The notes beneath the pieces are model-generated. The model did not search any database. It was not told where the DNA came from and was given only the letters and a program-made list of their open reading frames with translations. From Chiloscyllium plagiosum (taxonomy: Eukaryota): a stretch of DNA of 64,000 bases. A program made the translations under genes and the position numbers. Shown here in pieces: positions 6,274-56,690 of this stretch. Where the stretch lies: the NCBI RefSeq assembly GCF_004010195.1, contig NC_057758.1, positions 248,784 to 312,783 on the forward strand. Direction: 5' to 3'. The stretch's first letter is position 1. Every line of letters starts with the position of its first letter.

Positions 6274-6867
6274 TAGCGAGTTTTGAGAAGATTTGTAGCA
6301 CGGTTGAGGTTCTGGATGTAGGTTTGCTCGCTGAGTTGGAAGGTTCATTTCCAGACGTTTCGTCACCCTACTAGGTAACATCGTCACTGGGCCTCTGGGT
6401 GAAGCAATGCTGATGGTTTCTGCTTTCCACTTATATGTTTGGGTTTCTTTGGGTTGGTTACTAGCCACCAGGATACATGAACATCAACTCGCCACAAACG
6501 ACGTGACCCTCTCTCACTAGTATCCTTACATACAGATAAGGAATGACACCATTTCGGCTGGGACAGCACAACCCTACTGGGACAAGCCGAATAGGGACAT
6601 GCGCGAGAATTCCTAGAAGCATAGCATTCCAACCAGAATTCTATCAACAAACACATGGAGTGAGACACCACCTACCACCCCCTGAGAAAAAGAACGGGAA
6701 ATGACATCACCACAGGAAATGACATCACCAACCCTAAGAAACGCAAACATAAGCCGAAGTCATCAGCATTGCTTTGCCTGGAGGCCCACTGAAGATGTTA
6801 CCTAGTACGGTGACGAAACGTCTGGAAAGGAACCTTCCAGCTCAGCGAGCAAACCTACATCCACACA
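6274..6867 (+). mobile_element. Penelope-like element: GIY-YIG C-terminus with inverted pLTR
   Basis: IHEHQLATKR..PLSLVSLHTDKE..AREFLEA motif; the left end is an inverted copy of the right end; TSD TTAATGT (6267-6273 and 6868-6874). Confidence 0.8.
6786..6825 (+). ncRNA. Minimal hammerhead ribozyme motif (Penelope pLTR)
   Basis: CCA-CTGAAGA-TGTTACC tagtac GGTGAC-GAAAC-GTC-TGG: CUGANGA and GAAA cores, helix II, helix I CCA/TGG and a GUC site. Confidence 0.7.
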
Positions 6868-7464
6868 TTAATGTCTTCACAATCCGATTGGGACTGAGTT
6901 GTCCAAACAGCCAAATTTAACTTCAATTGGCTTCATCTCCAAGTGCCATTTTCAAATGAATTGGCTGAAGTTATAACTGTTGGCTGGTAAAAATGCTGCT
7001 TGGCTGTTTGATACAAAATATTTCAAATCGGGCAGCTGCAAACTGCTGCCCACACACATTCATCTTTTTTTAAAAACTCCAAGTTCAGAAAAACACTTCA
7101 TCTCTTAAAGGGACCACGCACTGCTTTTCAAAGCGTGAGTATTCTGCACAACCTCGCAACACCTTCCCGTTCACTCCTACTCTACAATGGACCCAAACCC
7201 CTTCCGATACACTCCAACTCTGCACAACCACAATGGAGACAAGTCCTGACCATTCATGCCAACTCATCTGAATGTCAAAGGAGCTAAATCCTGCCACGTT
7301 GACTCCCATTTATCACAATACAGATGTGCCCAAAAGCCTTCACCTTCACTCCCACGCTGCACAATCCTAAGGGATTCCAACCTGCATGCGTTTACTCCCA
7401 TCTGCGCCATCCCAACTGACATCAACCCCTTACAATTCACTCCCAGTCTAGACATCCCAGTAAG

Positions 7465-7672
7465 TTCTTTACTCAGCGAGTCGTGAGTTCATGGAATGCC
7501 CTGCCAGTAGCAGTGGTGGACTGTCCCTCATTATGAGCATTGAAGTGGGCATTGGATAGGCATATGGAGGATAGTGGGCTAGTGTAGGTTAGATGGGCTT
7601 GGATCGGCGCAACATTGAGGGCCGAAGGGCCTGTACTGCGCTGTATTCTTCTATGTTCTATGTTCTATGTTC
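7465..7672 (+). mobile_element. CR1-type LINE 3' end
   Basis: FFTQRVVSSWNALP and a (TTCTATG)n tail; matches the subfamily at 33.4-36.3 kb. Confidence 0.85.
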
Positions 7673-8129
7673 TAGAACCACACCCCTACCCATTCACCCT
7701 CCCTGTAAACAATCCCAAAACACCTCAACCCCTTCAAGTCCTCATCCATTCTACGTAATCCCAATTGACCCAAACCCATTCTCACTCACTCCCCCTCTAC
7801 ACATTCCCAATGGACCCAAAGCCCTTCCCGTTCACACCCACTCTACATAATCCTTATGGACCCAAACAACTTCCCTTTCAATCCCGCTCAACTCAATCCC
7901 AATGGACGTACACCGCTTCCCGTTCAGTTCCACTCTACACCATCCCAGTCGACACAGTCACAATGGACTCCAACCCCCTAATGTTCACAGCAACTTGCAC
8001 ACAATCCTACTGGAAACTAACCCCTTCCCGTTGGCTCCTACGCTGCACATTCTGGAAGGACTCAAATCCCTTCCCATTCCCTCCCACTCTCCACAATCCC
8101 GATGTACACAAATCCATTCCATTCGCAGG

Positions 8130-9280
8130 CAGAGGGTCGTACTGCACGGTAACAGACCCTTCAGTGCAACCCGTCCCTGCCAACCAAGTTTTCCAAACTG
8201 AATTAATCCTACCTCCTGCATATGGCCTTTATTCTTCTAAATCCTTGCTCTTTGTGCATCTGCCCAATTGTCTTTTCAATGTTTTAACCGCATCCAGTTA
8301 AATCTGACACTTCCTCTGGCATGCAACAACCCCAGTTTGAAAATTCACTTCTATTCATGCTCCACCATATGCGTAAAAACGTCACCCCACTGGTCATAGA
8401 GTCATCGAGATGTACAGCACGGAAACAGACCCTTTGATCCATGCCGACCAGATATCCCAACCCAATCTCGTCCTACCTGCCAGCACCCGGCCCATATCCC
8501 TCCAAACCCTTCCTATTCATATACCCATCCAAATGCCTCTTAAACGTTGCAATTGTACCAGCCTCCACCACATCCTCTGGCAGCTCATTCCACATACGTA
8601 CCATCCTCTGCGTGAAAACGTTGCCCCTTAGGTCTCTTTTATATCTTTCCTCTCTCACTCTAAACCTATGCCCTCGAGTTCTGGACACCCCCACCCCAGG
8701 GGAAAGACTTTGTCTATTTATCCTATCCATGCCCCTCATAATTTTGTAAACCTCTATAAGGTCACCCCCTCAGCCTCCGACACTCCAGGGAAAACAGCCC
8801 CAGCCTGTTCAGCCCCTCCCTATAGTTCAAATCCTCCAACCCTGTCAACATCCTTGTAAATCTTTTCTGAGCCCTTTCAAGTTTCACAACATCTTTCCGA
8901 TAGGAAGGAGACCAGAATTGCACGCAATATTCCAACAGTGGCCTAACCAATGTCCTGTACACCCACAACATAACCTCCCAACCCCTGTACTCAATACTCT
9001 GACCAATAAAGGAAAGCATACTAAACGCCACCTTCACTATCCTATCCACCTGCGACTCCACTTCCAAGGAGCTATGAACCTGCACTCCAAGGTCTCTTTG
9101 TTCAGCAACACTCCCCAGGACCTTACCATTAAGTGTCCCTTTTCAACCTCTCCCCTCTCACTTTAAACCTATCACCTCCAGTTTTAGACTAACTCAGCTC
9201 TGTGAAAAAAGACCTTAGCTATTCACCCTATCCATGTCTCTCCTGACATTATAAACTACTGCAAGGTCGCGCCTCAGCTT
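8130..9280 (-). mobile_element. Nested CR1-type LINE fragments (younger copy about 8395-9135 inside an older copy)
   Basis: ORFs 8473-8739 and 8762-9085 contain YRTLVRPLLEYCVQFWSP and FTQRMVRMWNELP. Confidence 0.85.
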
Positions 9281-9573: not shown

Positions 9574-10180
9574 TGTGGTTCTGTTCGCCGAGCTGGGAAT
9601 TTGTGTTGCAGACGTTTCGTCCCCTGTCCAGGTGACATCCTCTGGGAGCCTCCTCTGAAGCGCTTCGTCCGGCAACTCATGTCAAGAAACTCATGTTGCT
9701 TGTCATCTGCGTGTGTGGCTACTAGGGATAGCTGGTCGTGTCGTTTCGTGGCTAGTTGGTGTTCATGGATGCGGATCGTTAGCTGTCTTCCTTAGCTATC
9801 CTTAGTAGCCACACACGTGGATGACAAGCAACATGAGTTCGACTGGGACAACACTACTATTATAGGACAACCCAACAGAGAACAGCCAGGGAATTCCTGG
9901 AGGTATGGCACTCATCCACAGATTCAATCAATAAGCACATCGACCTGGACCCAATATACCGGCCACTAAAGCGGACAGCTGGAACTGACAACTGGAAGCG
10001 GCAGGGACAGGCCACTATAAATTCCGGAGGAAACACCACAGAAGCGCTTCACAGGAGGCTCCCAAGCACTGAGGATGTCACCTAGACAGGGGACGAAACG
10101 TTTGCAACACAAATTCCCAGCCCGGCGAACAGAACCACAGCAACGAGCACCCGAGCTACAAATCTTCTCCCAAACTTTGA
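9574..10180 (+). mobile_element. Penelope-like element with 5' inversion, inside a CR1 tail
   Basis: HEFDWDNTTIIGQ..AREFLEVWHS..INKHIDLDPIY motif; inverted pLTR at the left; 13-bp TSD ATTTCTTCTTTAT (9561-9573 and 10181-10193). Confidence 0.85.
10066..10105 (+). ncRNA. Minimal hammerhead ribozyme motif
   Basis: GCA-CTGAGGA-TGTCACC tagaca GGGGAC-GAAAC-GTT-TGC. Confidence 0.6.
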
Positions 10181-10664
10181 ATTTCTTCTTTATGGACGGA
10201 GCCAATGTCTTTCGAATTCTGTCCACATCCGCCACTTCCTCGGGAAGTTCATCCCACACTCGAAACCCCGTCTGTTCAAAAGAAATGTTGTCCCTCATAT
10301 ATTTTTTTAGAATCTCTCCCCTCACCCTCCTGTCCCTCAGTGCAATTCCCCATCCTAGGGGGAAAAGAAACACCTCACCTTAAACTTCAACTTGATTCAC
10401 TCAAAACCCTTTCACTTTATTCCCAGTGGAACTAAGCTCTTGCCCATTCATTGCCCCTTTGGGACTCTACACAATTCCCGTTCAATCCTAATCTGCACAT
10501 TCCAAATGGACACTAAACCTGCTTCGTATTGAGTCCCATTGACACAACTGAATGAATTCATGCACCTTCCCATTCATTCCCACAATGCCAATTGAACCAC
10601 TTCTCCCACTCTACAGAGTGCCAATGGACACACAACCTTTCCCAGGCACAGTTGCTCCAGAAGA

Positions 10665-10920: not shown

Positions 10921-11659
10921 AAAAATCTCAAAGGACCCGAGCCTTTCTCATCCACTCACTGCACTACGTCATCGCGACTCATTCAAATACCTTCCCAACC
11001 TGACACAATCCCAATAGCAACAAACATTTGCCCGTTCACTCCCAATCTGCCCCATCCCATTGGACACAAAAGCTCAACCATTCACTCGACTCCCAAAGGA
11101 AACAAACTCTGTCCTATTCATTCCCACTCTTGACAATCCCAATGGACACAAATCACTTCCTTTTCCCACCCGCTCTATACTTTCCCCAATGGACCCAAAC
11201 CCCTTCCCATTCACTCCCACACTTCACAATCCCAGTAAATGCTGAACTCTTCCCTTGCGATCCCATCTTGCACAATCCCAAATTACACAATACCTTCCCA
11301 GCCAATTCCATTTCACACACTATTAGTGGGCACGAAATCCAGCCCCCTCACTTTCAATCTACAAACTTTCAAAAACTCTTCCTATTTATTTCACTCTTTC
11401 AAGTCCCAATAAATCCAAACCCCCTCCCGACCACTCCTATTCTTCGGACTTAAGCCATTCTGGAATCTACACTATATAGCTGTCCTTCTTCCCAAACTAA
11501 GCTATTCCAAAACAATTCTGAATTAGTGGTAGATCAGAAAATGAAACAAGCTTCGCTGACATGCAGATAGCCTCGTTTAATTACAATATTTATGGTGAGC
11601 TGCATAGTTTAAAGAACCATTTGTAGATGACATTTAAAGTTTAAACAGTGAAGTTTTGA

Positions 11660-11946
11660 CGCATGGTGGCTCAGTGGTTAGCACTGCTGCCTCGCATCAC
11701 CAGGGTCCCAGGTTCGATTCCAGCCTTGGGTGACTGTCTGTGTGGAGTTTGCACTTTCTCCCCATGTCTGTGGGGGTTTTCTCCAACAGTCCAAAGGTGT
11801 GCAGGTTAGGTAAATTGGACATGCTACATTGCCATAATGTTAGGTGCATTAGTCAGAGGGAAATGGGTTGGGGTGGGTTACTCTTTGGAGGGCTGGTTGG
11901 GCTGAAGGGCCTGTTTCCACACTGTAGGGAATTTAATCTAATCTAA
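11660..11946 (+). mobile_element. HE1/V-SINE-type SINE
   Basis: TGGCTCAGTGG, GGTTCGATTCC and a (TAATC)n tail. Confidence 0.88.
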
Positions 11947-12929
11947 TCCCAATGGTCCCAAAACACTTCCCATTCACTTGCTCTTAATGCGATCGCAATG
12001 GACCCAAACCCCTTCCCGTTCACTCCCACCCTGCACAATCCCAATAGGTCTTCCCGTTCACTCCCACCCTGCACAATCCCAATAGGTCCCAACCCCTTCC
12101 CGTTCACTCCCACCTTACACAATCCCAAAGGGTCCCAACCCCTTCCAGTTCACTCCCACTTTACGCAATCCCAATGGACTGTTCACATCCACTCTACACA
12201 ATCCCAGAGACCCCCAACCCCTTCCCATTCTCTCCCACTCTCCACAATTCCAATGGGCCTAACCCCCTTCCCATTCTCTCCCGCACTGCATGATTCCAAT
12301 CGACACAAATCCCGCCCAGTTCACTCGCACTCTACACAATCCCATTGGAACCAGATCCCTTCCCATTGACTCCAAGAATTCGCAATCCCAATGAGTGCCA
12401 TTCACTTCCTATGTACTCCCACTCTTCACAATCCAAATGGGGTATGAAACCTAATTGGTCACTGTCCCCACAATCTTCACGGACATAAATAACTCCCATT
12501 TGCCACTCTATATCACCCTGAAGGACGCTAAAACCCTTGCCCCTTTAATCCAACTCTTCATGTTCATTCCACTCTATTCAATCCAATAACAACTGTAAAA
12601 TGCCTTGAAATTCTATAAAGCTATCTTTACTTTTTTTAAAAAAAAAGTACGTACGCAGGGCAATCATGGTTAATTACTGTTGTTGATATATGTTTGCTAT
12701 ACTAGCAGATTTCTGATCTGATATGGTAAGAAACAATGTGGTGTAAGTTCACCCCTTTTTCTAAAAACTTTGAAAATCAAATAAGTCCATCCATCTCCGT
12801 TTTAATGTTAAGTCTGATAGGGTCGTGGAAATCTGTGCATAAATCCATAAGGAAGCCTGAATTACATTTGAGACAGTGCTAATGAGAATCTCATAAACCT
12901 TATCAGGTCTTAACAACCCCTAGCTCTTC

Positions 12930-14714: not shown

Positions 14715-14995
14715 GCTATTCTGATGAAGAATCATCTCAACTTGAAACTTTAGCTTGCTTTCTCCCCATGGAAGACAAGCAGGAGGTGGAAGAACACAGC
14801 AGGCTAGGCAGCATCAGGAGGTAAAAAAGTCAATATTTCGGGTGTAACCCTTTGACTTCTCCACTTCCTGATGCTGCCTGGCTTGCTGTGATCTTCCACC
14901 TCCTACTAGTCTACCATGGAGTCCAGCAATGCAGTTTTTTCTCTCTGTAGATGCTGCCTGACATGCTGTGATCTCCAGCACTTTTTGTTTTCAAT
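14715..14995. mobile_element. Nested Penelope-derived pLTR fragments (fold-back at 14770-14945)
   Basis: Inverted CAGCAGGCTAGGCAGCATCAGGAG arms inside a fragment carrying a decayed CTGATGA...GAAAC motif. Confidence 0.55.
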
Positions 14996-15996: not shown

Positions 15997-16302
15997 AGAT
16001 TAGATTACTTACAGTGTGGAAACAGGCCCTTCGGCCCAACAAGTCCACATCGACCCGCTGATGCGCAACCAACCCAGACCCATTCCCCCTACACCTAACG
16101 CTACGGGCAATTTAGCACGGCCAATTCACCTAACCTGCACATTTTTGGACTGTGGGAGGAAACCGGAGCACCCGGAGGAAACCCACGCAGACACGGGGAG
16201 AACGTGCAAACTCCACACAGTCAGTCGCCTGAGGCGGGAATTGAACCCGGGTCTCTGGCGCTGCGAGGCAGCAGTGCTAACCACCGTGCCACCGTGCCGC
16301 CC
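15997..16302 (-). mobile_element. HE1/V-SINE-type SINE, full length
   Basis: Reverse complement begins GGGCGGCACGGTGGCACGGTGG, has A and B boxes, and ends in a TAATCTAATC tail. Confidence 0.92.
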
Positions 16303-16318
16303 ACTTTCAGTGGGCATC

Positions 16319-16466
16319 ACTTTCAGTGGGCAATTTCAAGGGAACATAAAAGGAAGATCTTCTTTGAGAACAACCTAAAGGAACCAGCATCTATAGTAGC
16401 TGATCCATTTACTGGGTTTATGTACTGGTCAGACTGGGGTGAGCCAGCCAAGATAGAAAAAAAAAA
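16319..16466 (+). pseudogene. VLDLR: Processed fragment of a VLDLR-like (LDL-receptor family, YWTD repeat) mRNA
   Basis: Encodes [38 protein letters not shown], compared with recalled [43 protein letters not shown]. It is frameshifted upstream and ends in A10. Confidence 0.8.
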
Positions 16467-16744: not shown

Positions 16745-17062
16745 TGAGATTCGATTCCCTACGGTGTGGAAACAGGCCCTTCAGCCCAACCAGTCCACAC
16801 CGAACCTCCGAAGAGTGACCCACCCAGACCCATTTCCCTCTGACTAATGCACCTAACACTACGGGCAATTTAGCGCGGCCAATTCACCTGACCCGCGCAT
16901 CTTTGGACGGTGGGAGGAAACCGGAGCACCCGGAGGAAACCTACGCAGACACGGGGAGGATGCGCAAACACCACACAGGCAGTCGCCCAAGGCTGGGGTC
17001 GAACCTGGGACCCTGGTGCTGTGAGGCAGCAGTGCTAACCACTGAGCCATCACGCCACGCCA
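16745..17062 (-). mobile_element. HE1/V-SINE-type SINE
   Basis: tRNA-like head at about 17060 and CR1-like tail at about 16750. Confidence 0.88.
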
Positions 17063-17289
17063 CATGCTCGGCAGAGGCGCAGTTGTGCATTCTTACCGGG
17101 ACAGGTTGTCAGCATCAGAAACCTATCCTCAAAAGTAATCACTCAGCACCCAATGAGCCTCTGGTGAGTTGCATTAGCAAGAGATCGAGTAGTGATCTCA
17201 GGCCTGTGTTTGATTACCGGATCTCGGGGGGGAGCAGTAAGGATCTAAAGATTGGCTTCAGGTCAGAGGAATAGATTCCTTAATCAAAG

Positions 17290-17470
17290 GAGACAGTGAG
17301 ATCTGCAGATGCTGGAAATCCGAGTTGAGAGTGCTGGAAAAGCACAGCAGGTCAGGCAGCATTCAAAGAGCAGGAAAATAGACGTCTCAGGGCTCTGGCC
17401 CGAAATGTTGGCTTTCCTGCTCCTCGGGTGCTGCCTGACCTGTTGTGCTTTTCCAACAACACACTCTCAA
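17290..17470. mobile_element. Fold-back Penelope-derived element
   Basis: Inverted arms GGAAAAGCACAGCAGGTCAGGCAGCA and TGCTGCCTGACCTGTTGTGCTTTTCC. Confidence 0.7.
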
Positions 17471-17539
17471 TGTATGAATCAAAGGGTTAATGACAGGTTT
17501 GACTGTGAAACCTCATTAGATCGATAGCTCACTAACCTT

Positions 17540-18419: not shown

Positions 18420-19235
18420 AGAATCATAGAGTTACAGGGTTGCACAATATGGAAACAGACCCTTCAGTCCAGCTCATCCATGATGAACAGATATCCTAAA
18501 TTAATCTAGTCCCTAGTTTGTGCGAAGATTTGTAGCTCGGGTGCTCGTTGTTGTGGTTCTGTTCGCCGAGCTGGAAGTTTTTGTTGCAAACGTTTCGTCC
18601 CCTGGCTAGGCGACATCATCAGTGCTTGGGATTTGCCAGCTCTTGGCTCATACCCCTCTAAACTATTTATGACCCATCCAGATGCCTTTGAAACGTTGTC
18701 ATTGTACCAGCCTCCATTACTTCCTCTGGCGGCTTATTCCATACACGCACCATCCTCTGCATGAAAACGTTACACCTCAGCTCCCTTTTAACCCTTTCCC
18801 CTTCTCACCGTAAACCTATGCCCCTCTATTTCTGAACACCACCCATCTGAGGAAACGACCTTGTCTATTTCATCCTACCCATGTCCCTCATGATTTTACA
18901 AACCTTCATAAGGTCATCCCTCAACCTCTGACGCTCCAGGGAAAAGGCCTCCGTCTATTCGGCCTCTCCTCACAGCTCAAAACCTTCAGACCTGGCAACA
19001 TCCTTCTCAATCTTTTCTGAACCTTTTCCAGTTTCGCGACATTTTTCCTGTAGCAGGGAGACCAGAATTGAACGCAGCATTCCAAATGTGGCCTAACCAA
19101 TGTCCCAACTTGACCTCCCAGCTCCAATACTCAACACACTGAATAATAAAGGCAAGCATACCAAACGCCTTCTTCACCACCCCATCTACCTGCGATTTCA
19201 CTTTCAAGGAACAGTGAACCTGCATTCCAAGGTCA
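18420..19235 (-). mobile_element. CR1-type LINE 3' part with a Penelope pLTR fragment at about 18515-18630
   Basis: LVRPHLECCVQFWSP motif; the inserted pLTR has GCA-CTGATGA-TGTCGCC..GGGGAC-GAAAC-GTT-TGC on the minus strand. Confidence 0.85.
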
Positions 19236-21944
19236 TTTCATCCCATTCTGAATAACCTCAAAGATTTTTTCTCTATTACTTGAAAGATTACTCCAAACAT
19301 CTTTCCCTTAACCTTAGAAAGTAATTTCTTTCTAATTTCTGCCCAATTCACTTCTCACTTAATGACGACTTAGGCACATTTAACAACTAGCATTTATGTA
19401 ACTTTCTCAACTAACCTGAAAGATGGCGTCGGAGAAGGACCATCGAAAAATTCCAATGGACCCAAACACCTTCCCAATATAGATAATCCCACTGGTGACA
19501 AAGCAAATCCGTTTCAAAATGGTCTGTATGCAATTCCAAAAGATCCAAACTGTTCCCATTCACACCTTCGTACAATTCCAATGGGCACAAACCTCGTGAT
19601 TGTAATGGTCCACACTCCTGTACCCTTCACTCCCAATGACCCAACCCATTTCCATTACACTCTCCCTCTACATAACCCCAACGAAGTCACTTTGCCTTCA
19701 CTCTCAGTGTGTACAATCCCAATTGACACTGACCCCCTTCCCCAATTCTCTCCCGCTCTGCACAATCGCAAAGGCCACAAAGATATCCCATTCAACACAA
19801 ATCAACACAACACCAATCGAACCCAAACACATTCTACTCTGCACCATCCGAAGGGACCCAAACTTCTTCCCAATCGCTCCAACTCTGCACAATCACAATG
19901 GCCCCAAACAGCTTCCCATTCATTACCAATTCACAGAATCCCAATGGCCCCAAACATGTTCCCATTCAGTACCAATCGACATAATCCCGATGGACCCACA
20001 TTCCTTCCCATTCATTACCACTCTGCAAAATCTCAATGGACCCAAAACACTGCCCATTCATTACCAATCTGCACAGTCCCGATGGTCCCAATCCACATGC
20101 ACTACCACTCTACAGTCCCAGTGGACCCCAACCACTTCATATTCACCTCCAGACAACACAATCCCAATCAACTGCAAACGTCTTCCAGTTCACTCCCACT
20201 CTTGTCAGTTGAACCCAAAACCGTTCCAATTATGCTCCCACTCTACGCAATCCAAAGGGACCAAACCCCATCTCCTTCACTCTCATTCTACACAATAAAA
20301 ATCAACCCAATACTTTCCCATTCACTTCCACTCTGCCCAACCCCAATGGACCAAAACCTCTTCCTCTTCACTCCCTTTCTGCTCAATACCAATAGACTCA
20401 AATCTATTCCCAGTAATTCCCACTGTACATACTCCCAATGGAGCCAAACCCCTTCCCCTTTGCTCCCACTATAGACAGTTCCAATCGATCTAAACCCCTT
20501 ACCGCTCACTCCAACTCTACACCATCAAAGTAAACCATTCTACAAATACACAATGGTCAGTAGACCTATCTCGTTCACGCTTACCCTACACAATCCCAAT
20601 TGACCCAAACCCCTCCCTGTTCACTCCCACTGTACATAATCCCAAGTACTCCCAATCGCCACGATCCTCGTGGACCTAACGTTTTCCCAATCACTACACA
20701 GTCACCCTAAACATAATTCCAGTTGATCCAATCCACTTCCCATGCAGGTTTCCACTACACAATCCCAAAGGGCCCAGCTTTGATCCCATTCTCTCATCCC
20801 ACCCATTAAATCGCATTCCCGTTGATGCTCCCCCTACCCGTTTGTTCATTTGCTCAGTTCGTGAGTGACTTTCGCCTGTATTGGAGGAGGCAGGATATCG
20901 AACAATTGACGGAAATCATCATTCTGTCATGGGGAGGATGGACAGGAAAGAGTCGAGAAAGCTGTTGTCTAAAAGGCATAAGTATTGCCAATTCATCCTC
21001 ATTTTGCACAATCCCAATTCACTCAAACGGCTTCCCTTTTACTGTCACTCGACACACTCCCAAAGAACTCCTAGCTCCTTCCCATTCACTACAATTCTAC
21101 GCAACCCCATGTACTCAAACCACTTACCATTCAGTCCCGATCCACACAGTTCCAATGGGCCCAAATACTTTCCCATTCTCTCCCGCTCTACACAATCCAA
21201 ATGGACCCAAATGCCTTCTCGTTCACGCCAACTCTATGCAATCCCAGTTGACCCAAACCCCATCCCATTCACTACCATTCTACACAATCCCAATGGATAC
21301 AAACCCACTTCCCATTCAGCTCTGATCTGCACACTTCCAAAGGAAACAAACACTCTCCCACTCTGCATAATCCCAATGGATCCAGCCCCCTTCCTGTTCA
21401 CTCCCACTCTACATAATCCCGATGGACACTAAACCCCTTCCCAATCTGCACACTCCAACGAACCCCAGACCCCTTCCTATTCATTAACGCGCTGTATAAT
21501 CCCAGTGGATATATCTTCGCATTCATTCCTAAACTACACAATCCCAATCAACCACAAAACACTTCCACTTTACTCCCACTCTTTATCAGTGCCAATGAAA
21601 CCCCAAATCATTCGCATTCACTCCTCCTCTATACAATTGCAACTGAACACAAATCCTTGTCCATTCACTCCCCCACTTTACACAATGTGAATGAATCCAA
21701 ATACCTTACTGTTCATTCCCACTCAATACAAGACCCAATCGACCCAAAACACTGCCCATCCATTCCAACTCTGAAGAATCCCATTGGGCACATACCACTT
21801 GCCATTCGCTCCCACTCTACACAATCTGAATGGACATAAAAGCTTCTCATTAACTTTCATTCTCACACAAGCCCTTCCTGTTCACTCCCACTCTACGTGA
21901 TCCAAATGGATGCCAAATTTCTTCCTATTCACTCTCACTGTATA

Positions 21945-23672: not shown

Positions 23673-23976
23673 ATACCGCCACTCTGCACAATTCCAGTGG
23701 ATACAAATTCCTTCCTATTCGCTCCTGCTCTACACAATCCCCGACGAGCCTAAACCTATTCCCATTCACTCTTCGCAATGCCGAAAGGACCCCATAAGCT
23801 GTCCCGTTCATTCCCTCTCTGCACAATGCCAATGGGCACATATCCTTTCGCTTTCATTCTTACTCGACTCAATCCCCATGGAGCCCAAAGCACTTTCTGC
23901 TCACTCCCCGCTCTACACAATTCTGATGGATCAAAACCAATTCCCATTCAGTCCCGATCTACACAATCCCAATGGA

Positions 23977-24234
23977 GCTGAAAATGTGTTGCTGGAAAAG
24001 CGCAGCAGGTCAGTCAGCATCCAAGGAACAGGAGAATCGACGTTTCGGGCATAAGCCCTTCTTCAGGAAGGGCATAAGCCCTTCTTCAGGAAAAAGGGCT
24101 TATGCCCTTCCTGAAGAAGGGCTTATGCCCGAAACGTCGATTCTCCTGTTCCCTGGATGCTGCCTGACCTGCTGCGCTTTTCCGGCAACACATTTTCAGC
24201 TCTGATCTCCAGCATCTGCAGACCTCACTTTCTC
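23977..24234. mobile_element. Fold-back Penelope-derived element with hammerhead motifs
   Basis: Near-perfect inverted arms; TSD CACAATCCCAATGGA (23962-23976 and 24235-24249); CTGAAGA-AGGGC ttat GCCC-GAAAC-GTC at 24111-24138 and in antisense at about 24038-24066. Confidence 0.8.
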
Positions 24235-24495
24235 CACAATCCCAATGGACCCAAAGCCCGCCCCGCTCACTGACACTCTGCACAGTACCAAACCACTTCC
24301 CGTTCACTCCCGCTCTGGATTATCCCAAAGGATCTAAACATGCTCCACACACCACTCACACTCTGAACAATCCCACTGGGGAAAAACACGTTCCGACTTA
24401 TTGCATTTCTATGCAATTCCAATGGGGAGCCGGGCGACCTAACCATGCTGCGTGATCAGAAGGGATCAAAATCCCTTCCTGTTCACACCCACTCT

Positions 24496-32400: not shown

Positions 32401-32410
32401 ACAAGTATAT

Positions 32411-32655
32411 GTTGTGGTTCTGTTCGCCGAGCTGGTTATTTGTGTTGCAGACGTTTCGTCCCCTGTCTCGGTGACATCCTCGGTGCTTGGGAGCCTCCTG
32501 TGAAGCGCTTCTGTGATGTTTCTGTGAAGGAGGCTCCCAAGCACTGAGGATGTCACCGAGACAGGGGACGAAACGTCTGCAACACAAATTCCCAACTCGG
32601 CGAACAGAACCACTACAACGAACACCCGAGGTACAAATCTTCTCCCAAACTTTGA
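32411..32655. mobile_element. Non-autonomous fold-back Penelope pLTR element
   Basis: Inverted arms; 12-bp TSD ACACAAGTATAT (32399-32410 and 32656-32667); empty site at 43461-43472. Confidence 0.88.
32541..32580 (+). ncRNA. Minimal hammerhead ribozyme motif
   Basis: GCA-CTGAGGA-TGTCACC gagaca GGGGAC-GAAAC-GTC-TGC. Confidence 0.7.
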
Positions 32656-36549: not shown

Positions 36550-36756
36550 GTTAAAAATCACACAACGCCAGGTTATAGTCCAACAGGTTTAATTGGAAGC
36601 ACACTAGCTTTCGGAGCGACGCTCCTTCATCAGGTGATTGTGAGCGTCGCTCCGAAAGCTAGTGTGCTTTCAATTAAACCTGTTCGACTATAACTTGGTA
36701 TTGTGTGATTTTTAACTTTGTACACCCCAGTCCAACACCGGCATCTCCAAATTATG
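36550..36756. mobile_element. Fold-back Penelope-derived element, third family
   Basis: Inverted arms GTTAAAAATCACACAA and TTGTGTGATTTTTAAC; 12-bp TSD GCTCTCTTTAAT (36538-36549 and 36757-36768); empty site at 45842-45853. Confidence 0.82.
36602..36636 (-). ncRNA. Minimal hammerhead ribozyme motif
   Basis: Reverse complement CAC-CTGATGA-AGGAGC gtc GCTCC-GAAAG-CTA-GTG. Confidence 0.68.
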
Positions 36757-37624: not shown

Positions 37625-38330
37625 CGGAGACAAGCAGATTTAACGCATCCAGAAACCCTCGCTACTCTCCCCGACATCAAGGACATTCGGAAATGACTGC
37701 CAGACTACACAGATCACTTGGAATTATGGTAACCCACAAACCCACCAACACACTAAAACAGCAACTAATGAACTTGAAAAACCCTATACAGAAAACAAGA
37801 AAAACTACTGTCGTTGACAAAAATAGTGTGCAAGAACTGTAACGAATACTACATTGGACAAACATGCAGAAAACCAGCCACCAGGATGAATGCACCTCCA
37901 CTAGCCAAAAAAACAACATGACCCTCTCTCACTCGTATTCCTATATACAGATGAGGAGGGGGGCAACACATGCATCCTACTATAAGTCAAATACAGACAT
38001 GCACGACAATTCCTAGAAGCTTGGCATTCCAACTGGAATGCAATCAGCAAACACATTGGATTGGACGACATTTACCACGCCCTAAAAATAAGAACACGAC
38101 ATGACATCGCCATAGGAAATTGCATCACTATAGGAAATGACATCAACAACCGAAGCAATTCCAGAAATATAAATAAAAAACGGGAAACACCAGCAGTGCT
38201 TCGTCCGGAGGCTCACTGAAGGTGTTACATAGTATGGTGATGAAACGTCTGAAAATGTACCTTCCAGCTCATCGAGCAAACCTACAACCAGAATCACAAC
38301 CTGAGCTACAAATCTTTTCAAAACTCGCTA
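37625..38330 (+). mobile_element. Older Penelope-like element 3' part (GIY-YIG and pLTR)
   Basis: VTHKPTNTLKQQLMNLK, CNEYYIGQT and ARQFLEAWHS motifs; decayed hammerhead at about 38215-38250; paralog at 46910-47620. Confidence 0.8.
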
Positions 38331-38899
38331 ATACCACACGTTGTGTTTGCACAGACTCGTCCACATTGACCTCACCATCTGATTGAGGCAATTTCTGGAA
38401 AACTATGTTACCAGACGAAACAATCTGCAGTGAAGTTATGTTTATTTTTCTCGGCAATTGCAAGTCAAGAAACCCACGTCTTCTACTTTAGTTCACACTT
38501 TAAACAAATACTTCCGCGTGTTTGATGCGATGTGATTGTTAGTTTGTTGCGATATTTGACACTGTTTCTGGAAGATAAAACTGGACTATATTTGGTGAGC
38601 TGCTTGGGACACGCTAGTAAAGATTTAGAAAGCAAAATATGGATTTGCGACCAGAAGCACTGGAATATTTTCTCTTTCTCCTACGACAGGAGATAACCCC
38701 TCCCATATCCCCTTGTCCAGACTGTTCAGCATTTTGCGCTCTTCAATCAAGTAATAGGCTGCTGCTTCATTCGACTCTTCAAAACTCAAGTGGGAACAAG
38801 CCCAGTCTGTGCAACCTTTACCCAGGAAATAGCCCCCTCGCTGAAGTCATTAAACCAGGAATCTTCCCCTGAACAAACTCGAATGCAAACATATCCTCT

Positions 38900-39083
38900 A
38901 GGAGAAAGTGAGGACTGCAGATGCTTGAGATCAGAGCTGAAAATGTGTTGCTGGAAAAGCGCAGCAGGTCAGGCAGCATCCAAGGAGCAGGAGAGAAGAA
39001 GGGCTCATGCCAGAAACGTCGTTTCTCCTGCTCCTTGGATGCTGCCTGACCTGCTGCGCTTTTCCAGCAACACATTTTCAGCT
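38900..39083. mobile_element. Fold-back Penelope-derived element
   Basis: Inverted arms GCTGAAAATGTGTTGCTGGAAAAGCGCAGCAGG. Confidence 0.75.
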
Positions 39084-40851: not shown

Positions 40852-40975
40852 CTCGACGGGCTTTTGCCCAAAACGTCGATTTCGCTGCTCCTTGGATGCT
40901 TCCTGAACTGCTGTTCTCTTCCAATACCACTATTCCAGAATCTGGTTTCCAGCATCTGCAGTCATTGTTTTTACC
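40852..40975 (+). mobile_element. Penelope-derived pLTR fragment
   Basis: GGGCTTTTGCCCAAAACGTCGATT followed by the family arm sequence. Confidence 0.65.
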
Positions 40976-41219: not shown

Positions 41220-42235
41220 TGGAGGCCTGTAACCAGTGGAGTGCCACAAGAATCTTTCCTCCGTCAAGTCCTCTCCGTGATTTATATAAATGATTTGATT
41301 TGAGCATAAGATGTATCGTGAATAAGTTTGCAGATGACACCAAATTTGGAGATGTCATGGATAGCGAAGAAGATTACCTGAAATGACAACAGGATCTTGA
41401 TCAGGTGGGCAATGGCTCGAGAGTTGGCAGATGGAGCTTAATTCAGGTAAATGCGAGGTGCCATATTTAGGAAAACAAATCTTACCAGGACTTACACACT
41501 TAATGTTAAGGTCCTAGGGAGTGTTGTTGAAATCATAGACTTTGGAGTGCAGTTTCATAGCTCCTTGAAAGTGGAGTGGCAGATACATGGTATAGTGAAG
41601 AAGGCGCTTGGTACGCTTTCCTTTATCGTTCAGAGTACTGAGTACAGGAGTTGGGAGGTCATGTTGCGGACATTGGTTAGACCACTGTTGGAATATTGCG
41701 AGCAATTCTGGTCTCCCTTCTATCGGAAAGATGTTGTGAAACTTGAAATGCTTCAGAAAAGATTTCCAAGGATGTTGCCAGGATTGGAGATTATGAGCTA
41801 CAGGGAGAGGCTAATCAGGCTGGGGCTGCTTTACCTGGAGCGTCAAAGGCTGAAGGGTGACCTTATAGAGATTTACAAAATTATAAGGGGCATGGATAGG
41901 ATAAATAGACAAAATCTTTTCGCTTGGTTGGGGGAGTCCGGAACTAGAGGGCATAGGTTTAAGGTTAGTGAGGAAAGATACCTTAGATGCATTTTTTTCA
42001 CCCAAAGGGTGGTACGTGTGTGGAATGAGCTACGAGACGAAGTAGTGGAGTCTGTTACAATTGCAACATTTAAAAGACATTTGGATGGGTATATGGATAG
42101 GAAGGGTTTGGAGGGATTATGGGCCAGGTGCTGGCAGGTGAGACTAGATTGGGTTGGGATATCTGGTCGGCTTGGACTGGTTGGACAGAAGGGTCTGTTT
42201 CAATTCTGTACATCCGTATAATCGATGACTCTATA
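41220..42235 (+). mobile_element. CR1-type LINE RT/C-terminus and tail
   Basis: KFADDTK and the ORF at 41451-42221. Confidence 0.92.
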
Positions 42236-43580: not shown

Positions 43581-43885
43581 GGGCGGCATGGTGACACAAT
43601 GGTTAACATTGCTGCCTCACAGTGCCAGAGACCTGGGTTCAATTCCCACCCGTGTGGAGTTTGCACATTCTCCCTGTGTCTGCGTTGGTTTCCTCCAGGT
43701 GTTCCGGTTTCCTCCCACAGTCCAAAAAAATGTTCAGGTTAGATGAATTGGCCACGCTAAATTGCCCATAGTGTTAGGTGAAGGGGTCAATGTCGGGGAA
43801 TGGATCAGGATGGGTTTGTCTTCGGAGGGTCGGTGTGGACTTGTTGGGCTGAAGGGCCTCTTTCCACACTGTAAGTAATCTAAGC
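43581..43885 (+). mobile_element. HE1/V-SINE-type SINE, specific to copy B
   Basis: TSD TAATGTTG (43572-43579 and 43886-43893); empty site at about 32768. Confidence 0.9.
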
Positions 43886-45325
43886 TAATGTTGGTGGTGC
43901 GGACTAACCGATATTCGGTTACACAGAGAATGTGTGGTGCACAATAATACAATATCTTCTGTCTGAAGAAACTGGTGTGTGAACTCTCAGCAGGGGCATA
44001 TTGTCTACAATGATACTATGTCTACTTTGTGGTTGAATAGATATTTGGACATTCGAATGTTTGTAACTTACGTCTCATCTGCTGTAATACAACGTCAACT
44101 GATTGGTATGGTTGATAATTGGACACTCGTCAGTGTGCAGACATTAATAAAACAATTCCTGCAGTAACACAATGCATACTGAGTTGGGCCGCTGATATGT
44201 GGACACTCAGCCTCATGCTCCTCTCTTGTCTACAGTAATGCGTGAGATGACTGACGTTTGAACATACAGAAATGTGTATTGTCTATAGCAATACACTATT
44301 TACTGTTGGGACACCAGATGATTGGGCAGTCAGCACTAAGCAACCTGTGCACGGCTCACAATGAAATTATACTGGCTGTAATACAAAGTCGATAGTGCAG
44401 TGGAAATTCAGCTGTGTCCAGCCTGTGTGTTGAGCACGCAATGAGATGCTGGATCTTTTTAAGTCCTTGCCAGGGGACATTGCTGCCTTTGTGGAACACT
44501 TAGAGAGTGAATGGTGACTTGAGGCGCATAAGATCCGTTTTACAGGCAATTGTTTAACAGACCGACTGACTGCTTAAAATAATCAAAGATTGTTTCAATC
44601 ACATCGATGAAATGGAAATATTTCTTTATATTGCGCCCGCCTGCGAGCATTTCAACAAACCTTGCATCCGTGACGAGTATTGAGATTCCAAATGATTCTC
44701 AAATAATGGGTGACTGTCAAAGAGCTAACAATAACAGGCAGATTGTTGAGGAATCTTGTACTGTGAAGGAGGGATCCTTTATATCTTCTTACTTTTGACA
44801 CCGGACGGCTGGGCTCATACACCATACTCTCACATCAAACCTACAAAGCATAAACCTAAGTTTGAAATAGCCCTAATATTTTGATCAGACTGAAGAATCG
44901 TTGTTGTTTTTTGATGCCGAATTGGCAAGGGGAAAGCAAAAATTGTTTGTGCCTGTGTTTAAACCCATTGAAAGGGACGGGGAATGACGTGTTTGCATCT
45001 TTGAAAGAAGCTGGAAGATTATGCCTAAACCATTGTTTCTGTTTTTCTAATGATTCTGGTATGACGTTCCTTTCCGATTACATATATACTTCCAACCCCG
45101 CCTGGTATGATTGTTTACACTCCTCTCAGCATGTAAGGGTACAGTTAATCAAACTTGAAAGACATTTTCCAACTCACCCATCTCCCAGTTCCTAGTAGTG
45201 TATATCTATTGTTTCCCGAAGTTCTGCCATCTCAAAATTTCTTGGAAGTAGATGCGAAGATTGTCAAGTCAATGGTCTTTCTCCAGAAAGTATCTTCGAC
45301 GAAACCAGCCGTTCCTTTGTTGCAA

Positions 45326-45590
45326 AGATTAGATTACTTACAGTGTTGAATCAGGCCCTCCGGGCCAACAAATCCACACGGACCCGCCGAAGAGCAACCC
45401 ACCCACACACCTACATTTACTCCTTCATCTAACACTACGGGCAATTTAGCATGGCCAATTCACCTAACATGCATTTCTTTAGACTGTGGGTGGAAACCGG
45501 ATCACCCGGAGGAAACCCACACAGAGAACATGCAAACTCCACACAGACAGTTGCCCGAGGTGTGATTTGAATCCGGGTCTCTGGCAAAGT
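45326..45590 (-). mobile_element. HE1/V-SINE-type SINE
   Basis: GATTAGATTACTTACAGTG tail and SINE body. Confidence 0.85.
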
Positions 45591-46909
45591 GGCAGCGTTA
45601 TCTCCATATTAAAACAATAACAGCAGTCAAAATCAGTGCATGTTTGTCCAACATTCTGAGACGTCGTGGATGTCTGCAAAGTGCTGTCAGCTACTTATTT
45701 TAATTCTGTATCTTTCCTGAATTGCTGATTTCCAAGTAACTCACGCTGCTGAACACCCCTGCAACCACACCACTCTCGCCACTTTAATTTCTATCAGGAG
45801 ACTGTATCCCTCTGTTTCTACCCGACCATTCTCGGTCTGATGCTCTCTTTAATTCCTCTGTGCAATTCCCTTTCTCCCTTCTCATCACTTCCCACAAACT
45901 CAACTTTCATGTTTCTCAATTATTTTCCACTTTTTCTATCTTGAAGCTCCTAAGTCGGAAGAAAATACGCACACTTTAACACAGAAAATACTTTCTGAAA
46001 TTTGAAGTCAATTTAAAGATTGGCCAGAGCTGCCAAAACAGAACAGCTAATAGATAGGCTGTCCAAAAAATAGTTGCATGCAACAGTTAGCAGTTCAATG
46101 GATACCCGAGATTTGGTTGCTGTTTTCAGATCAATTCAATTTCCGTCTATTAATTTAAATTCAGCCGAGGATACTTAAACCAAACTGAGTTTGAATTTAC
46201 TGTATTCACAGGATCGGAATGGCGTAGGTGTGATAAACAAACCCCACTGTTCCTGTCCTGCATTCTTGCTCCAATTGGAGGTGCCACAGACCTCTCTGTG
46301 GATGATCCCACCTCGCGGCCCACCTTCTCTCCTAGTCCATGCCATCACATGGCAGTACACATACCGCTTACTTCTCCACAGACCTGTTCGAATATCTGTA
46401 AGTAATCTAATATTTAAAACCTGTTCAAATATCAGACACAGGTTCCCCTCATTTTTTTCAGTTCCTACCCATCTCTCGCTCCTCAGTAGTGCATCGACCT
46501 GTAAGTCCATCATCATCTTTCTGAACATTGACACTTTCTTGCTTTCTCTCCTCTTCGACGCCACTCACAATCTACTCACAGTACAGGTTTTCCAAGAGAT
46601 GACGACATCGTTGTTTAAATAATCTTGTCTTTCCATTGGTTCCCCCTTCCGTCAGTCACATTTAATTCCACACCAAACGGTTTCCCTGTGCGCTTCTCAT
46701 TTCCAATGTCATGCCTTTCTCTCTACATTTCTCCCACCGATTAACAGTCTTTTCTGAATGGCCTGAATTTGCCCCCATGCTTTGGACTTCTAGTCCGAAG
46801 GGACAGCGCGTTAATTAAAGGAGCAGTGCCGCTTTTAACACGCCCTGCAAATAATTCGGAAAGGTGTGTTTTTTTTCTTTGGAATGAGGGGTGAGATGGT
46901 CTCCAGGGG

Positions 46910-47620
46910 ACAAGCAGATGAAACGCATCCAGAAACCCTCGCTACTTTCACCGACATCAAGGACATTTCGGAAATGACTGTCAAACTACTCAGATCCCTT
47001 GGAATTACGGTAACCCACAAACCTACCAACACATTTAAACAGCAGCTAATGAATTTGAAAGACCCTATACAGACAACAAGCAAAACTATTGTTATTTACA
47101 AAAAGAGTGTGCAAGAGCTGTAAAGATTCCTACATTGGACACACGCAGAAAACCAGCCACCAGGATACATGAACATCAACTAACCAAAAACAACATGAAC
47201 CTCTCTTACTAGTATCCCTACATATGGATGAGGATGAAACCACTTCGACTGGGACAACACATCCATCCCAGTACAAGGAAAACACAGACATGCACGACAA
47301 TTCCTTGAAGCATGGCATTCAAACCGGAATTCAATTAACAAACACATTGAATTCGATTACATTTGCCACCCCCTAAGAAAAAAGAACATGATACAGCATC
47401 GCTATTGGAAATGGCGTCACAAAAGGAAATTACATCACCAACACCCGAAATCCCAGAAATATAAAGGAAAGCAGGAAACACCAGCAGTACTTCGTTCGGA
47501 GGCTCACAGACGATGGCACATATTATGGTGATGAAACATCTGAAAATGAACCTTCCAGGTCAGCGAGCAAACCTCCATCCAGAATCTCAACCTGAGCTAT
47601 AAATCCTCTCAAAACTTACT
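46910..47620 (+). mobile_element. Penelope-like element 3' part (paralog of 37625-38330)
   Basis: HKPTNTFKQQLMNLKDP and IHEHQL motifs. Confidence 0.8.
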
Positions 47621-47869
47621 AATACCACACGGTGTGTTTGCACAGACTCATCCACATTCAACTCACCATATGATTGAGGCAAGTTCTGGAAAACTGTGGT
47701 ACAAGACGAAACAATCTGCAGTGAAGTTACGTTTCTTTTTCTAAACGATTGCAAATCAAGAGACCCACGTCTTCTACTTTAGTTCACATTTTACCAAGAG
47801 TTTCAGCGTGTTTGATCCGATGCGATTATCAGCTTGCTGAGATATTTGACACAGTTTCTGGAACAGACT

Positions 47870-49639: not shown

Positions 49640-49840
49640 CATGATTTGAGGGGCAGGTGTTGAACTGGGGTGTTCAAAGTTAAACATCACACAACACCAG
49701 GTTATAGTCCAACACCAGGTTTAATTGGAATCACGAGCTTTGCAGCACTGATCTTTCATCAGGTGGTTGTGGAGTAAAAAATCTAAGGACACAGAATTTA
49801 CAGCAAAAGACTACAGCATCATGTAACCAAAATCATATGC
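49640..49840 (-). mobile_element. Penelope-derived fragment (same family as 36550-36756)
   Basis: ATCACACAACACCAGGTTATAGTCCAACA and a decayed antisense hammerhead TTCATCAGGTG. Confidence 0.6.
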
Positions 49841-52091: not shown

Positions 52092-52141
<50 letters not shown>

Positions 52142-53655: not shown

Positions 53656-53919
53656 TGCCATTGTGTGAAGTGGGAGGGTCAGCTGGTTTCTTTAGGCTGG
53701 ACTGGCGACCCTCATCACTTTGCTTCCAGTGATCCTGATGACTTAAATTCCATACGAATCATGAATCATGGAATGTCGAAGTAAGTTAGTCTCTATGTCA
53801 TTTTTGCCATTGTGTTGGCAAGGAGATGGTCGTGTTTTTTGGTTGTTTTGTTCAATGTATGTTGGTAGTTTTCAGTTGGAGATTTGAAAAAAATACCTCA
53901 TTTGGTGTTGCTGAGGGGA

Positions 53920-55460
53920 AGAGTCACAGAGTCATAGAGATGTACAGCATGGATTCAGATCTTTCGGTCCAAACAGTCCATGCCAACCAGATATCTCTAT
54001 CCAATCTTGTCTCACCTGCCAGCATCCGGTCCATATCCCTCCAAACCCTGCCTATTCATATACCCATCCAAATGCCTCTTAAATGTTGCAATTGTACCAG
54101 CCTCCCCCACTTACTCTGGGAGCTCATTCCAAACACGTACCGCACGCTGTGTGAAAAAAAATTGCCAGGTCTCTTTTATGTCTTTCCCCTCTCGCCCTAA
54201 TCGTATGCCCTGTGGTTCTGCACTCCCCGACACCAAGGAAAAGCCTTTGCCTATTTACCTTATCCATGCACTCATGATTTTGTAATCCTCCATAAGGTCA
54301 CCCCTCGGCTTGCGACACACCAGGGAAAACAGCCCCAGCCTGTTCAGCCTCTCCCTGTAACTAAAATCCTCCAAACCTGGCAACATTCTTGTAAAACTTT
54401 TCTGAACCCCTTCAAGTTTCACAACATCTTTCCGATAGGAAGGAGGCCAGAATTGCACGCAACATTCCAACAGTGGCCTAACCAATGTCCTGGGTAAAAA
54501 CAATGACTGCAGATGCTGGAAACCAGAGTCTAGATTAGAGTGGTGCTGGAAGAGTACAGCAGTTCAGGCAGCATCCGAGGAGCAGTAAAATCGACGTTTC
54601 GGGCAAAAGCACTTCATCAGGAATACAGGCAGAGAGCCTGAAGTGTGGAGTTCTTATCTCTCCACACTTCAGGCTCTCTGCCTGTATTCCTGATGAAGGG
54701 CTTTTGTTGAAACGTCGATTTTACTGCTCCTCGGATGCTGCCTGAACTGCTGCGCTCTTCCTAACCAATGTCCTGTATAGCCGCAACATGACCTCCCAAC
54801 TCATGTACTCAATACTCTGATCAATAAAGGCAATCTTACCAAACGCCTTCTTCACTATCCTATCCACCTGAGACTCCACATTCAAGGATCTATGAACCTG
54901 CACTCCAAGAACTCTTTGTTCAGCAACACTACCTGCGACCTTATCATAAAGTGTATAAGTCCTGTTAAAATTTGCTTTCCCAAAATGCAGCACCTCGCGT
55001 TTATTTGAGTTAAACTCCATCTGCCACTTCTCAGCCCATTGGCCCATCTTGTCGAGATCCTGTTGCAATCTGAGATAGTCCTCTTTGCTGTCCACTACAT
55101 TTCCAATTTTGATGTCATCTGCAAAATTACTAACTGTACCTCTTATGCTCGCATCCAAGTCATTTATGTAGTTGACAAAAAATACAGGACCTAGCTCTGA
55201 TCCTTGTGACACTCCATTGGTCACTGGCCTCCAGTATTAAAAATAACCCTCCACCACCACCTTCTACCTTTGAGCCAGTTTTATATCCAAATGGCTAGTT
55301 CTCCGTGTATTCCATGATATTTAACCCTTGGGAAACCTTGTCGAACGCCTTACTGAAGTCCATATAGATCCCATCTACCGGTCTGCCCTCATAACTCCTC
55401 TTTGTTACTTCCTCAAAATCTCAATTAAGTTTGTGAGACATGATTTCCCAGGTGCAAAGA
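53920..55460 (-). mobile_element. CR1-type LINE RT and tail, split by a Penelope insert
   Basis: YMDFSKAFDKV, GVSQGS, NFADD and LVRPLLECCVQFW motifs. Confidence 0.92.
54493..54759. mobile_element. Fold-back Penelope-derived element
   Basis: 16-bp TSD CCTAACCAATGTCCTG (54477-54492 and 54760-54775); inverted arms; CTGATGA..GAAACGTC on both strands. Confidence 0.85.
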
Positions 55461-55849
55461 GACTGATGTGTTGCTGTGTTTCGAGCTGAAGCAGTAAATC
55501 TCCAGTCAGGCTGTCATTGAAGGGCTATGAGTCTTGTGATAACAGGAAGCTGTCATTCATCGTGAATGAGGGACAGCGAGGTCGTTCAGGCCTTCGAGTT
55601 GCCTCACCATACGATAAGATCATGATTGATTGAATTGTCATCTCTAATCCATGTTCCTGCCTAAACCCTCGAAGATTTGACTCTAAGGTATTCAAAATGA
55701 TCACGTAGAAGATGGGACTGAGTTAATAGAACCGATATGTTCTCACTTTACCACGTTTTGCTTTATTATACAAGCAATTTCTAATTTATTTCAACATCTG
55801 CAGATCTTTAGTTGTTTTGAATAATTCCGTGAAATAGAGTGCAATTTGT

Positions 55850-56690
55850 ATAATTACCCCAAGTCTGTTTTGATACATGCATCGACCCTTATGCAATGTG
55901 TAACTTACTTGCTCCTTTGTTTTGATTTTTGGATACACTCGTCGATCTCAGCGCAGGGTGTAACGCATTCACCACTCTCTGCTCTTTCTTCCGTGTATAA
56001 ACGTGGATTGGAGTGGAGTCTGTCTGTCTCCCTCTCTCTCCCCAGCCTGTGATTTTTACATGTTAATCACTCGATCAGAGTACTGTGCGCAACTCTTTCC
56101 CCAGTCTATGTTGCCTTATATTTAAAGCCCTCGATCAGAGCGCAGCGTTTATCTCACTGACCAGTCTGTGTTGTTTCTCATGTGAAGCCCTCGAATTGAT
56201 AACTGTGGCTAACTATTCCCCCAGGCAGTTTAACTTGCAAAAATGAAGACATCGATCAGAGGGTAGTGTCTAAGTCTTTTCTCAGTTTTATTGATAAACG
56301 TCTTTATATGATTGCAGTGTGCAACTCTCTTCTCCAGGTAAAAACAAGGACTGCAGATGCTGGAAATCAAAGTCTAGATTAGAGTGGTGCGGGAAAAGCA
56401 CAGCAGGTCAGGTAGCATCAGAGGAGCAGGAAAATCGACGTTTCGGGCAAAAGCCCATCTTCAGGAATAGAGGCAGGGTGCCTGCAGAGTGGAGAAATAA
56501 AATGTTATCTCTCCACTCTGCAGGCACTCTGCCTCTATTCATTTTCCACACCACTCTAATCTAAATTCTCTTCTCCAATCTACATTGTTTTATATATGAA
56601 CAGCTCGATCAGAATGCAGTGAGGAAGTCACTCCCCGTTCTGTGTTGATTTATATATAAGCACATGGATCAGAGAGATGTTCGTAGGTAT
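55850..56690. repeat. Degenerate 60-bp tandem array
   Basis: TCGATCAGAG or close variants at 56071, 56131, 56191 and 56252. Confidence 0.75.
56337..56566. mobile_element. Fold-back Penelope-derived element
   Basis: TSD TCTCTTCTCCA (56326-56336 and 56567-56577); same family as 54493-54759. Confidence 0.8.

Follow-up and report, generated by a model that had tools for sequence, protein, structure and literature searches.

Minimal hammerhead ribozymes (min-HHRs) occur in the pseudo-long terminal repeats (pLTRs) of metazoan Penelope-like elements (PLEs), where the monomer is reported as inactive and dimers as weakly active (Cervera and De la Pena, 2014, PMC4209133). The motif of the Poseidon element PAc from Anolis carolinensis is cleaved only with protein and is dispensable for insertion in vitro; in this element, stem II is where the open reading frame (ORF) begins, and reverse transcription is initiated 111-118 nt into the ORF, at a pair of sites delimiting a short "tail" (Frangieh et al., 2024, PMC11167929). 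Endonuclease-bearing (EN+) PLEs have been described with this tail, an inversion, and a target site duplication (TSD) (Arkhipova et al., 2013, PMC3846280; Craig et al., 2021, PMC8557442). Here we analyze a window of 64,000 nt from the shark Chiloscyllium plagiosum (NC_057758.1:248,784-312,783, forward strand; all coordinates are relative to the window), in which short hammerhead-bearing insertions are very probably 5'-truncated 3'-end (pLTR) pieces of at least three EN+ Penelope-like families, each with a minimal type I hammerhead inherited from its source element. The arrangement is already published in other animals, and the window adds shark examples of a kind known since 2014, with no new mechanism. 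No shark row was seen among the motif rows consulted in PMC4209133, and in the literature searched, with subscription journals mostly outside it, there was no account of a Penelope hammerhead in sharks (the word "shark" in one review refers to a shape) and no match for Neptune elements in sharks.

The window was scanned with a descriptor that required exact CUGANGA and GAAA boxes, a paired palindromic helix III, an NUH triplet, at least 3 bp in helix II and at least 2 bp in helix I, and that allowed an optional extra base after A9. Eight intact minimal hammerheads were found, with C3 at 6789+, 10069+, 18622-, 24066-, 24111+, 32544+, 36633-, and 56464-. Shuffling the window 300 times (approximately dinucleotide-preserving) gave 0.007 motifs on average and never more than 1, with any match in only 2 of the 300 shuffles. 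One unpaired base separates A9 from G10.1 in all eight cores, and the descriptor without it is too strict, giving no match in the window. The G10.1-C11.1 pair is likewise present in 8/8, the helix III palindrome is ACGU in seven cores and AGCU in one, and helix I of family B has only 2 bp. All eight motifs match the published Penelope consensus, given as NNN CUGANGAH G...C GAAAN-palindrome-NUH NNN (PMC4209133), in its extra base after A9, its G10.1-C11.1 pair, its 4-nt palindrome, and its NUH. Their spacing from the 3' end is also constant, 74-79 nt in family A and 97-100 nt in family B. Relaxing the descriptor to one core mismatch adds 38216+, 32483-, and 6387-. Among the decayed cores, 38216+ has A9>G, 47507+ has U4>A and a broken palindrome, the minus-strand core at ~49.76 kb has lost G12, and 54620- has a helix II mismatch; 54690+ and 14721+ are also decayed.

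The six cores listed as intact in the first-pass annotation were all recovered at the same positions and strands, with helix I pairs (CCA/UGG, GCA/UGC, CAC/GUG) and helix III palindromes (ACGU or AGCU) as it described them. Its decayed copies at ~14.7, 38.2, 47.5, 49.7, and 54.6-54.7 kb are real, but 56464-, which it had counted with them, passes the descriptor as intact; its list also left out the extra base after A9 and the damaged arms at 6387-, ~9.64 kb (-), and 32483-. It had proposed scans with hammerhead models, and of these the descriptor found the eight motifs, while the covariance models of Rfam gave 28 matches at E<=10, none to a hammerhead family. Most of the 28 were sub-threshold matches to miRNA hairpins that cover the inverted arms; these are explained by the arms and were rejected. 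For annotation, this means that inverted-arm hairpins mimic miRNA precursors and that Rfam does not report the ribozyme.

The motifs and their relatives make up 16 short insertions of three families, here called A, B, and C. Clear TSDs of 9-16 bp, mostly 11-13, flank nine of the 16, against 8-10 bp in EN+ PLEs (PMC3846280; PMC8557442). Empty paralogous sites, each with a single copy of the target, are found at 43461-43472 for the family A insertion at 32411-32655, and at 45842-45853 for the family C insertion at 36550-36756. They belong to a local duplication (31117-38573 vs 42179-47863; 78-93% identical, degenerate, and broken by later insertions), and since the sites are empty in the partner, both insertions are younger than the duplication, whereas the family A pieces at 37.6 and 46.9 kb are older. 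In the nine two-armed insertions measured (excluding the 56.3 kb copy, which has a deleted second arm), one arm is shorter than the other by 33-41 nt in eight and by 56 nt in one, compared with a tail of 30-40 nt in PAc (PMC11167929). As in EN+ PLEs, there is 5' truncation, an adjacent inverted head-to-head copy, and an optional tail, and the pLTR includes the first codons (PMC3846280; PMC8557442); unlike in the descriptions of those elements, no full-length unit is present in the window. Several families per genome, mostly solo copies, and nearby opposite-strand pairs are also features of the published set (PMC4209133). When public contigs of two organisms were mapped to 36450-39150, their summed depth, which is not a copy number, was ~1e5-1e7 over the three hammerhead-bearing ends vs ~5-600 on the flanks. 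In two DNA runs, loose contig ends are concentrated at positions 36550 and 36749-36756 for family C and 38900 and 38936 for family B, so the two-end pattern extends beyond the window. Contig joints of C ends with B ends were set aside as a finding, as on a rough estimate two very abundant families will often be neighbors by chance. With its TSDs, two empty sites, and contig depth over hammerhead-bearing ends, the claim that at least three families have transposed holds.

Judged by protein homology, family A is an endonuclease-bearing PLE, probably of the Poseidon type, with GIY-YIG remnants upstream of the hammerhead. A 50-residue peptide from the window matches 81 proteins at E<=0.001; among 17 of these that were scanned, five have RVT_1 and five GIY-YIG (two above the Pfam cut-off). 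One homologue (P0033) carries both domains and another (P0054, 832 aa) groups with reverse transcriptase (RT) + GIY-YIG clusters (score 0.97); RT, absent from the truncated copies in the window, is present in both proteins. In a tblastn search, seven homologous proteins map to 6452-6863, 9574-10188, 37625-38301, and 46911-47438, with <=82% identity, and the matches cover the GIY region at 37820-37906. No PLE family came up when the short endonuclease pieces of the window were themselves scanned with Pfam. Elements of the Penelope/Poseidon clade lack a zinc-finger-like linker between RT and endonuclease, and visual inspection of P0007, P0054, and the window showed no CxxC ahead of the GIY region. 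The Penelope origin put forward in the first-pass annotation is thus supported for family A by these homologues; families B and C are inferred to be PLEs by their architecture, namely the kind of hammerhead, the tail, the inverted arm, and the TSD.

The family A hammerhead also appears to overlap the start of the ORF. In seven of the eight family A arms translated, an AUG is spelled by A9, the extra U, and G10.1. The eighth has a G at 38222, where A makes up 97% and 99% of DNA contig depth, and RNA reads have A in 66/70, restoring both A9 and the AUG. (The RNA data are from one poly(A) single-cell sample, X21, of which ~2% of the run was read and 5,961 reads mapped; its sister run X22 gave 0 mapped reads.) The frame from the AUG at 10075 is 43% identical to the first 41 residues of P0054 (pairwise E 4e-4). 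This AUG is likely the start codon. As in PAc, the ORF would begin at stem II; full-tail copies of family A end 106-110 nt after the AUG, compared with 111-118 nt into the ORF in PAc, and the cut falls after the 28th nt, compared with 26 nt after the start codon (PMC11167929). Activity has been shown for PAc (PMC11167929), while the window motifs are known from sequence alone. Families B and C, unlike PAc (PMC11167929), lack a comparable AUG; where subfamily B-I has an AUG frame, B-II interrupts it with a stop. Separately, the Chiloscyllium protein P0001, whose annotation is WW domain-binding protein 2-like, ends in ~90 residues of family A sequence, which would be either an exonisation or a gene-model artefact.

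The strongest apparent sign of selection on the motif is that the whole published consensus is common to three families with dissimilar flanks. The first-pass annotation had looked to an excess of core over flank conservation, and this is seen at one level only. Between the A-I and A-II consensuses the core is identical at 11/11 positions and the flanks at 63/87 (one-sided p 0.037, a single test); within subfamilies the two are much alike, changes from the consensus after insertion being 4/97 in the core and 45/720 in flanks that include some edge noise, with gaps uncounted. These rates fit neutral decay after insertion. The outer helix I pair is always paired in the eight family A arms (G-C in four, C-G in two, U-A in two), with a covariation score of 0.266 that was reached in 1/500 shuffles, from related rows and for this one pair only.

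Folding predictions suggest that the copies in the window do little. In whole-insertion folds, pairing with the inverted arm brings the helix II probability to 0.00 in six of the eight cores. Of the other two, 56464- retains just helix II, and 18622- (18586-18625) is predicted to retain both helices (P 0.83 and 0.99), as no other intact core does. Same-strand tandem hammerhead units are absent, with kilobases between even the closest intact cores of one strand. Most copies are therefore probably inert, with the ribozyme predicted to be buried by the inverted arm in 6/8 cores and no same-strand partner near. A dimer formed through the palindrome is sterically possible in the models. The antisense twin noted at 24108-24140 does exist (24037-24068, -), but as a dimer partner it was rejected, since it is a reverse complement predicted to anneal and to abolish the ribozyme fold. 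Given this predicted burial, and the published monomer inactivity, weak dimers, and protein dependence, function is proposed for the source elements and not for the window copies. According to the literature, the element protein nicks DNA and begins reverse transcription from two internal RNA sites, giving the tail; in source elements, cleavage would trim tandem read-through RNA. In family A, the cut, placed 28 nt downstream of where the AUG begins, would sever the start codon from the ORF. Selection on the hammerhead fold would act in these source elements, and the scattered window copies would be passengers, decaying about neutrally and mostly unable to fold the ribozyme.

Several results weigh against this account. 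TSDs are weak in three of the 16 insertions and absent in four. The covariation amounts to one pair and about two independent changes, and pairs with a double change did not beat shuffles (458/500). The 3' half of the family A core is also coding, which gives its conservation two possible causes. The active dimer fold lies 5-19 kcal/mol above the two-strand minimum-energy fold in 8/8 cases, in a model that ignores tertiary contacts of the core. No ORF linking B or C to a PLE was found in the window, and pattern searches of metagenome contigs gave 0 loci for either family, as did one of viral contigs for family B. Finally, X21 has no pile-up of RNA starts or ends at any cut site, although the library is unsuited to show one.

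Among the other explanations, chance matches to a short motif have a negligible probability: loose CUGANGA...GAAA matches are common (19 in the window; candidates such as 37204-, 46486-, and 50245+ were rejected because they fail the descriptor) and Rfam has no hammerhead here, but eight intact motifs against 0.007 expected, all of them in repeat families and at a fixed 3'-end distance, refute this. It is also fairly unlikely, though less so than the other rivals, that B and C represent non-autonomous elements headed by a hammerhead (like retrozymes, or like short interspersed nuclear elements, SINEs), which would lack an ORF and borrow the enzymes of PLEs. No B or C copy in the window extends to a coding region, the B-I frame is stopped in B-II, and a 2026 preprint derives animal retrozymes from pLTRs (bioRxiv 10.64898/2026.07.22.740005); these non-LTR retrozymes share the type I hammerhead and are present in the one chondrichthyan sampled there. 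However, same-strand tandem units, their defining trait in that preprint, are missing from the window, B and C have the same tail, inversion, and TSD as family A, and strong 5' truncation is normal for PLEs (PMC8557442).

The motif could instead be a non-catalytic remnant, kept as a structure for translation start, protein binding, or 3'-end formation, which we regard as quite improbable. The AUG and coding overlap of family A fit such a role, and so do the anole data, in which ribozyme mutants have no effect on insertion in vitro and no RNA ends are seen at the cut site (PMC11167929). For 767 family C reads in X21, the fit stops at 36642 in a loose end common to them, suggesting RNA that is intact across the site. 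Yet the non-coding CUGANG half and the NUH are retained in three dissimilar families, and the anole motif does cleave with protein, with partial rescue by C3G/G8C (PMC11167929). It is very unlikely that host transcripts are acted on by active or domesticated ribozymes among the dispersed copies. The single-armed copy at 18586-18625 is predicted to fold both helices and all three families have RNA reads in X21, but the cores decay about as fast as their flanks, 6/8 are predicted to be sequestered, monomers were inactive in PMC4209133, and a motif scan turned up no intact host gene in the window.

In family C, an AUUAAA resembling a poly(A) signal lies behind the hammerhead in all three arms (36588-36593, -; 36673, +; 49725, -). 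In the intact copy it lies 12 nt after the scissile bond, with a GU-rich tract behind it. In PMC4209133, the turtle motif of the AGCU type has AAUAAA just after helix I, with no comment on it seen in the main text consulted, and no account of a pLTR poly(A) signal was found in the literature searched, which was of limited coverage and included passages of PMC2377424 and PMC3846280. X21 reads are biased to the element sense, provided that the first mate is antisense. Their loose ends in poly-T stand before 36573 (546 reads) and before 36576 (451 reads), which in this one sample puts the poly(A) of ~1,000 family C reads 29-32 nt downstream of the scissile bond and 11-14 nt downstream of the AUUAAA. 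One speculative proposal, to which we give a low probability, is that the family C hammerhead is coupled to 3'-end formation: the AUUAAA and GU-rich tract would direct polyadenylation ~30 nt past the cut, and cleavage, licensed by a dimer or by an element protein, would de-tail the RNA. If so, cleavage would strip the poly(A) tail from element RNA as a conditional de-tailing switch, host RNAs ending in any of the very many family C copies would be de-tailed likewise, and the template for the DNA ends, ~55 and 95 nt beyond the cut, could be read-through RNA alone. As an alternative, oligo-dT priming on genomic A-tracts beside some copies may be the source of the poly-T ends. Family A, with its putative start codon inside the ribozyme, and family C, with its candidate poly(A) signal just behind it, offer material to test control of translation or of 3'-end fate by cleavage.

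The individual insertions are as follows. The A-I insertion at 6275..6866 (both strands) has a weak TSD of 7-9 bp; its minus arm (~6275-6458) has the full tail and a damaged core (C3>G at 6387), and its plus arm (~6452-6866), with a GIY-YIG C-terminal remnant and a tail-less end, bears the intact hammerhead at 6786..6825 (+; GUC site after 6822, AUG at 6795). The A-II insertion at 9574..10180 (both strands, 13 bp TSD) joins a rearranged inverted arm (9574-9791), whose core is partly deleted and which carries an endonuclease piece, to a plus arm (9794-10180) with an endonuclease C-terminus and the intact hammerhead at 10066..10105 (+; GUU site after 10102, AUG at 10075). A single-armed A-II end piece at 18515..18631 (-), with the intact hammerhead 18586-18625, lies within a CR1-like repeat; a TSD was looked for there and none found. 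The head-to-head A-II insertion at 32411..32655 (both strands, 12 bp TSD) pairs the intact hammerhead 32541-32580 (+) with a U4>C copy at 32483 (-). The older A-I piece at 37625..38331 (+), with the GIY-YIG motif region and the decayed hammerhead 38216, has a paralogous copy at 46911..47622 (+) with the decayed hammerhead 47507. In family C, the head-to-head insertion at 36550..36756 (both strands, 12 bp TSD) has an intact hammerhead at 36602-36636 (-; CUA site after 36605) and a plus arm that starts inside helix II; an older piece at 49640..49830 (-), with an approximate upstream boundary, contains the decayed hammerhead.

Family B includes a head-to-head insertion in the 46-bp satellite at 23975..24235 (both strands, ~13 bp TSD), with intact cores at 24109-24140 (+) and 24037-24068 (-), preceded by a 23-nt duplication. 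This stretch (hammerhead 5' box and helix II; 24043-24134) is duplicated fully on the minus arm and partly on the plus arm, and one arm may have been copied from the other. Two-armed insertions also stand at 38901..39083 (both strands; truncated hammerhead, 13-14 bp TSD) and, in a CR1-like repeat, at 54493..54760 (both strands; damaged hammerheads 54620- and 54690+, 15-16 bp TSD). A single-armed piece with a truncated core is at 40856..40974 (+; 13 bp TSD), and an older two-armed piece that has lost its cores at 17291..17471 (both strands; 9 bp TSD). The insertion at 56337..56565 (11 bp TSD) has an intact hammerhead at 56435-56466 (-) and an inverted arm that has deleted its own. At 14715..14990, the B-like piece with the decayed hammerhead 14721+ is split just 3' of that hammerhead by another, two-armed B-like piece nested at ~14772-14946.

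The window is rich in other repeats, including pieces of long interspersed nuclear elements (LINEs) that we take to be CR1-like, and 46-bp and 70-bp tandem repeats. The degenerate 46-bp repeat forms dispersed arrays at ~3000-4500, 7200-8150, 11000-12500, 19700-21900, and 23700-28800, and the separate 70-bp array is at ~1-1755. An 802-codon open frame at 33892-36300 (-) is a LINE ORF2 (endonuclease + RT), with RVT_1 and endonuclease domains found at 33892-36297; it is absent from the duplicated partner region and is thus a young insertion. The local duplication dates PLE and LINE insertions relative to each other. A ~220-bp interspersed repeat, presumably a shark SINE, has many copies on both strands (16063-16305, 16821-17063, 24490-24785, 45327-45525, 57756-57998, and others). 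One window peptide is 82% matched to a Chiloscyllium punctatum protein. An isolated YWTD fragment of the LDL-receptor family at 16305-16460 (+; Pfam Ldl_recept_b, E 4.6e-6) matches LDLR-family chains including VLDLR, and a motif scan of the window found none of its other exons. It adjoins a short interspersed repeat, ends in an A-run, and is probably a retrocopied piece of mRNA.

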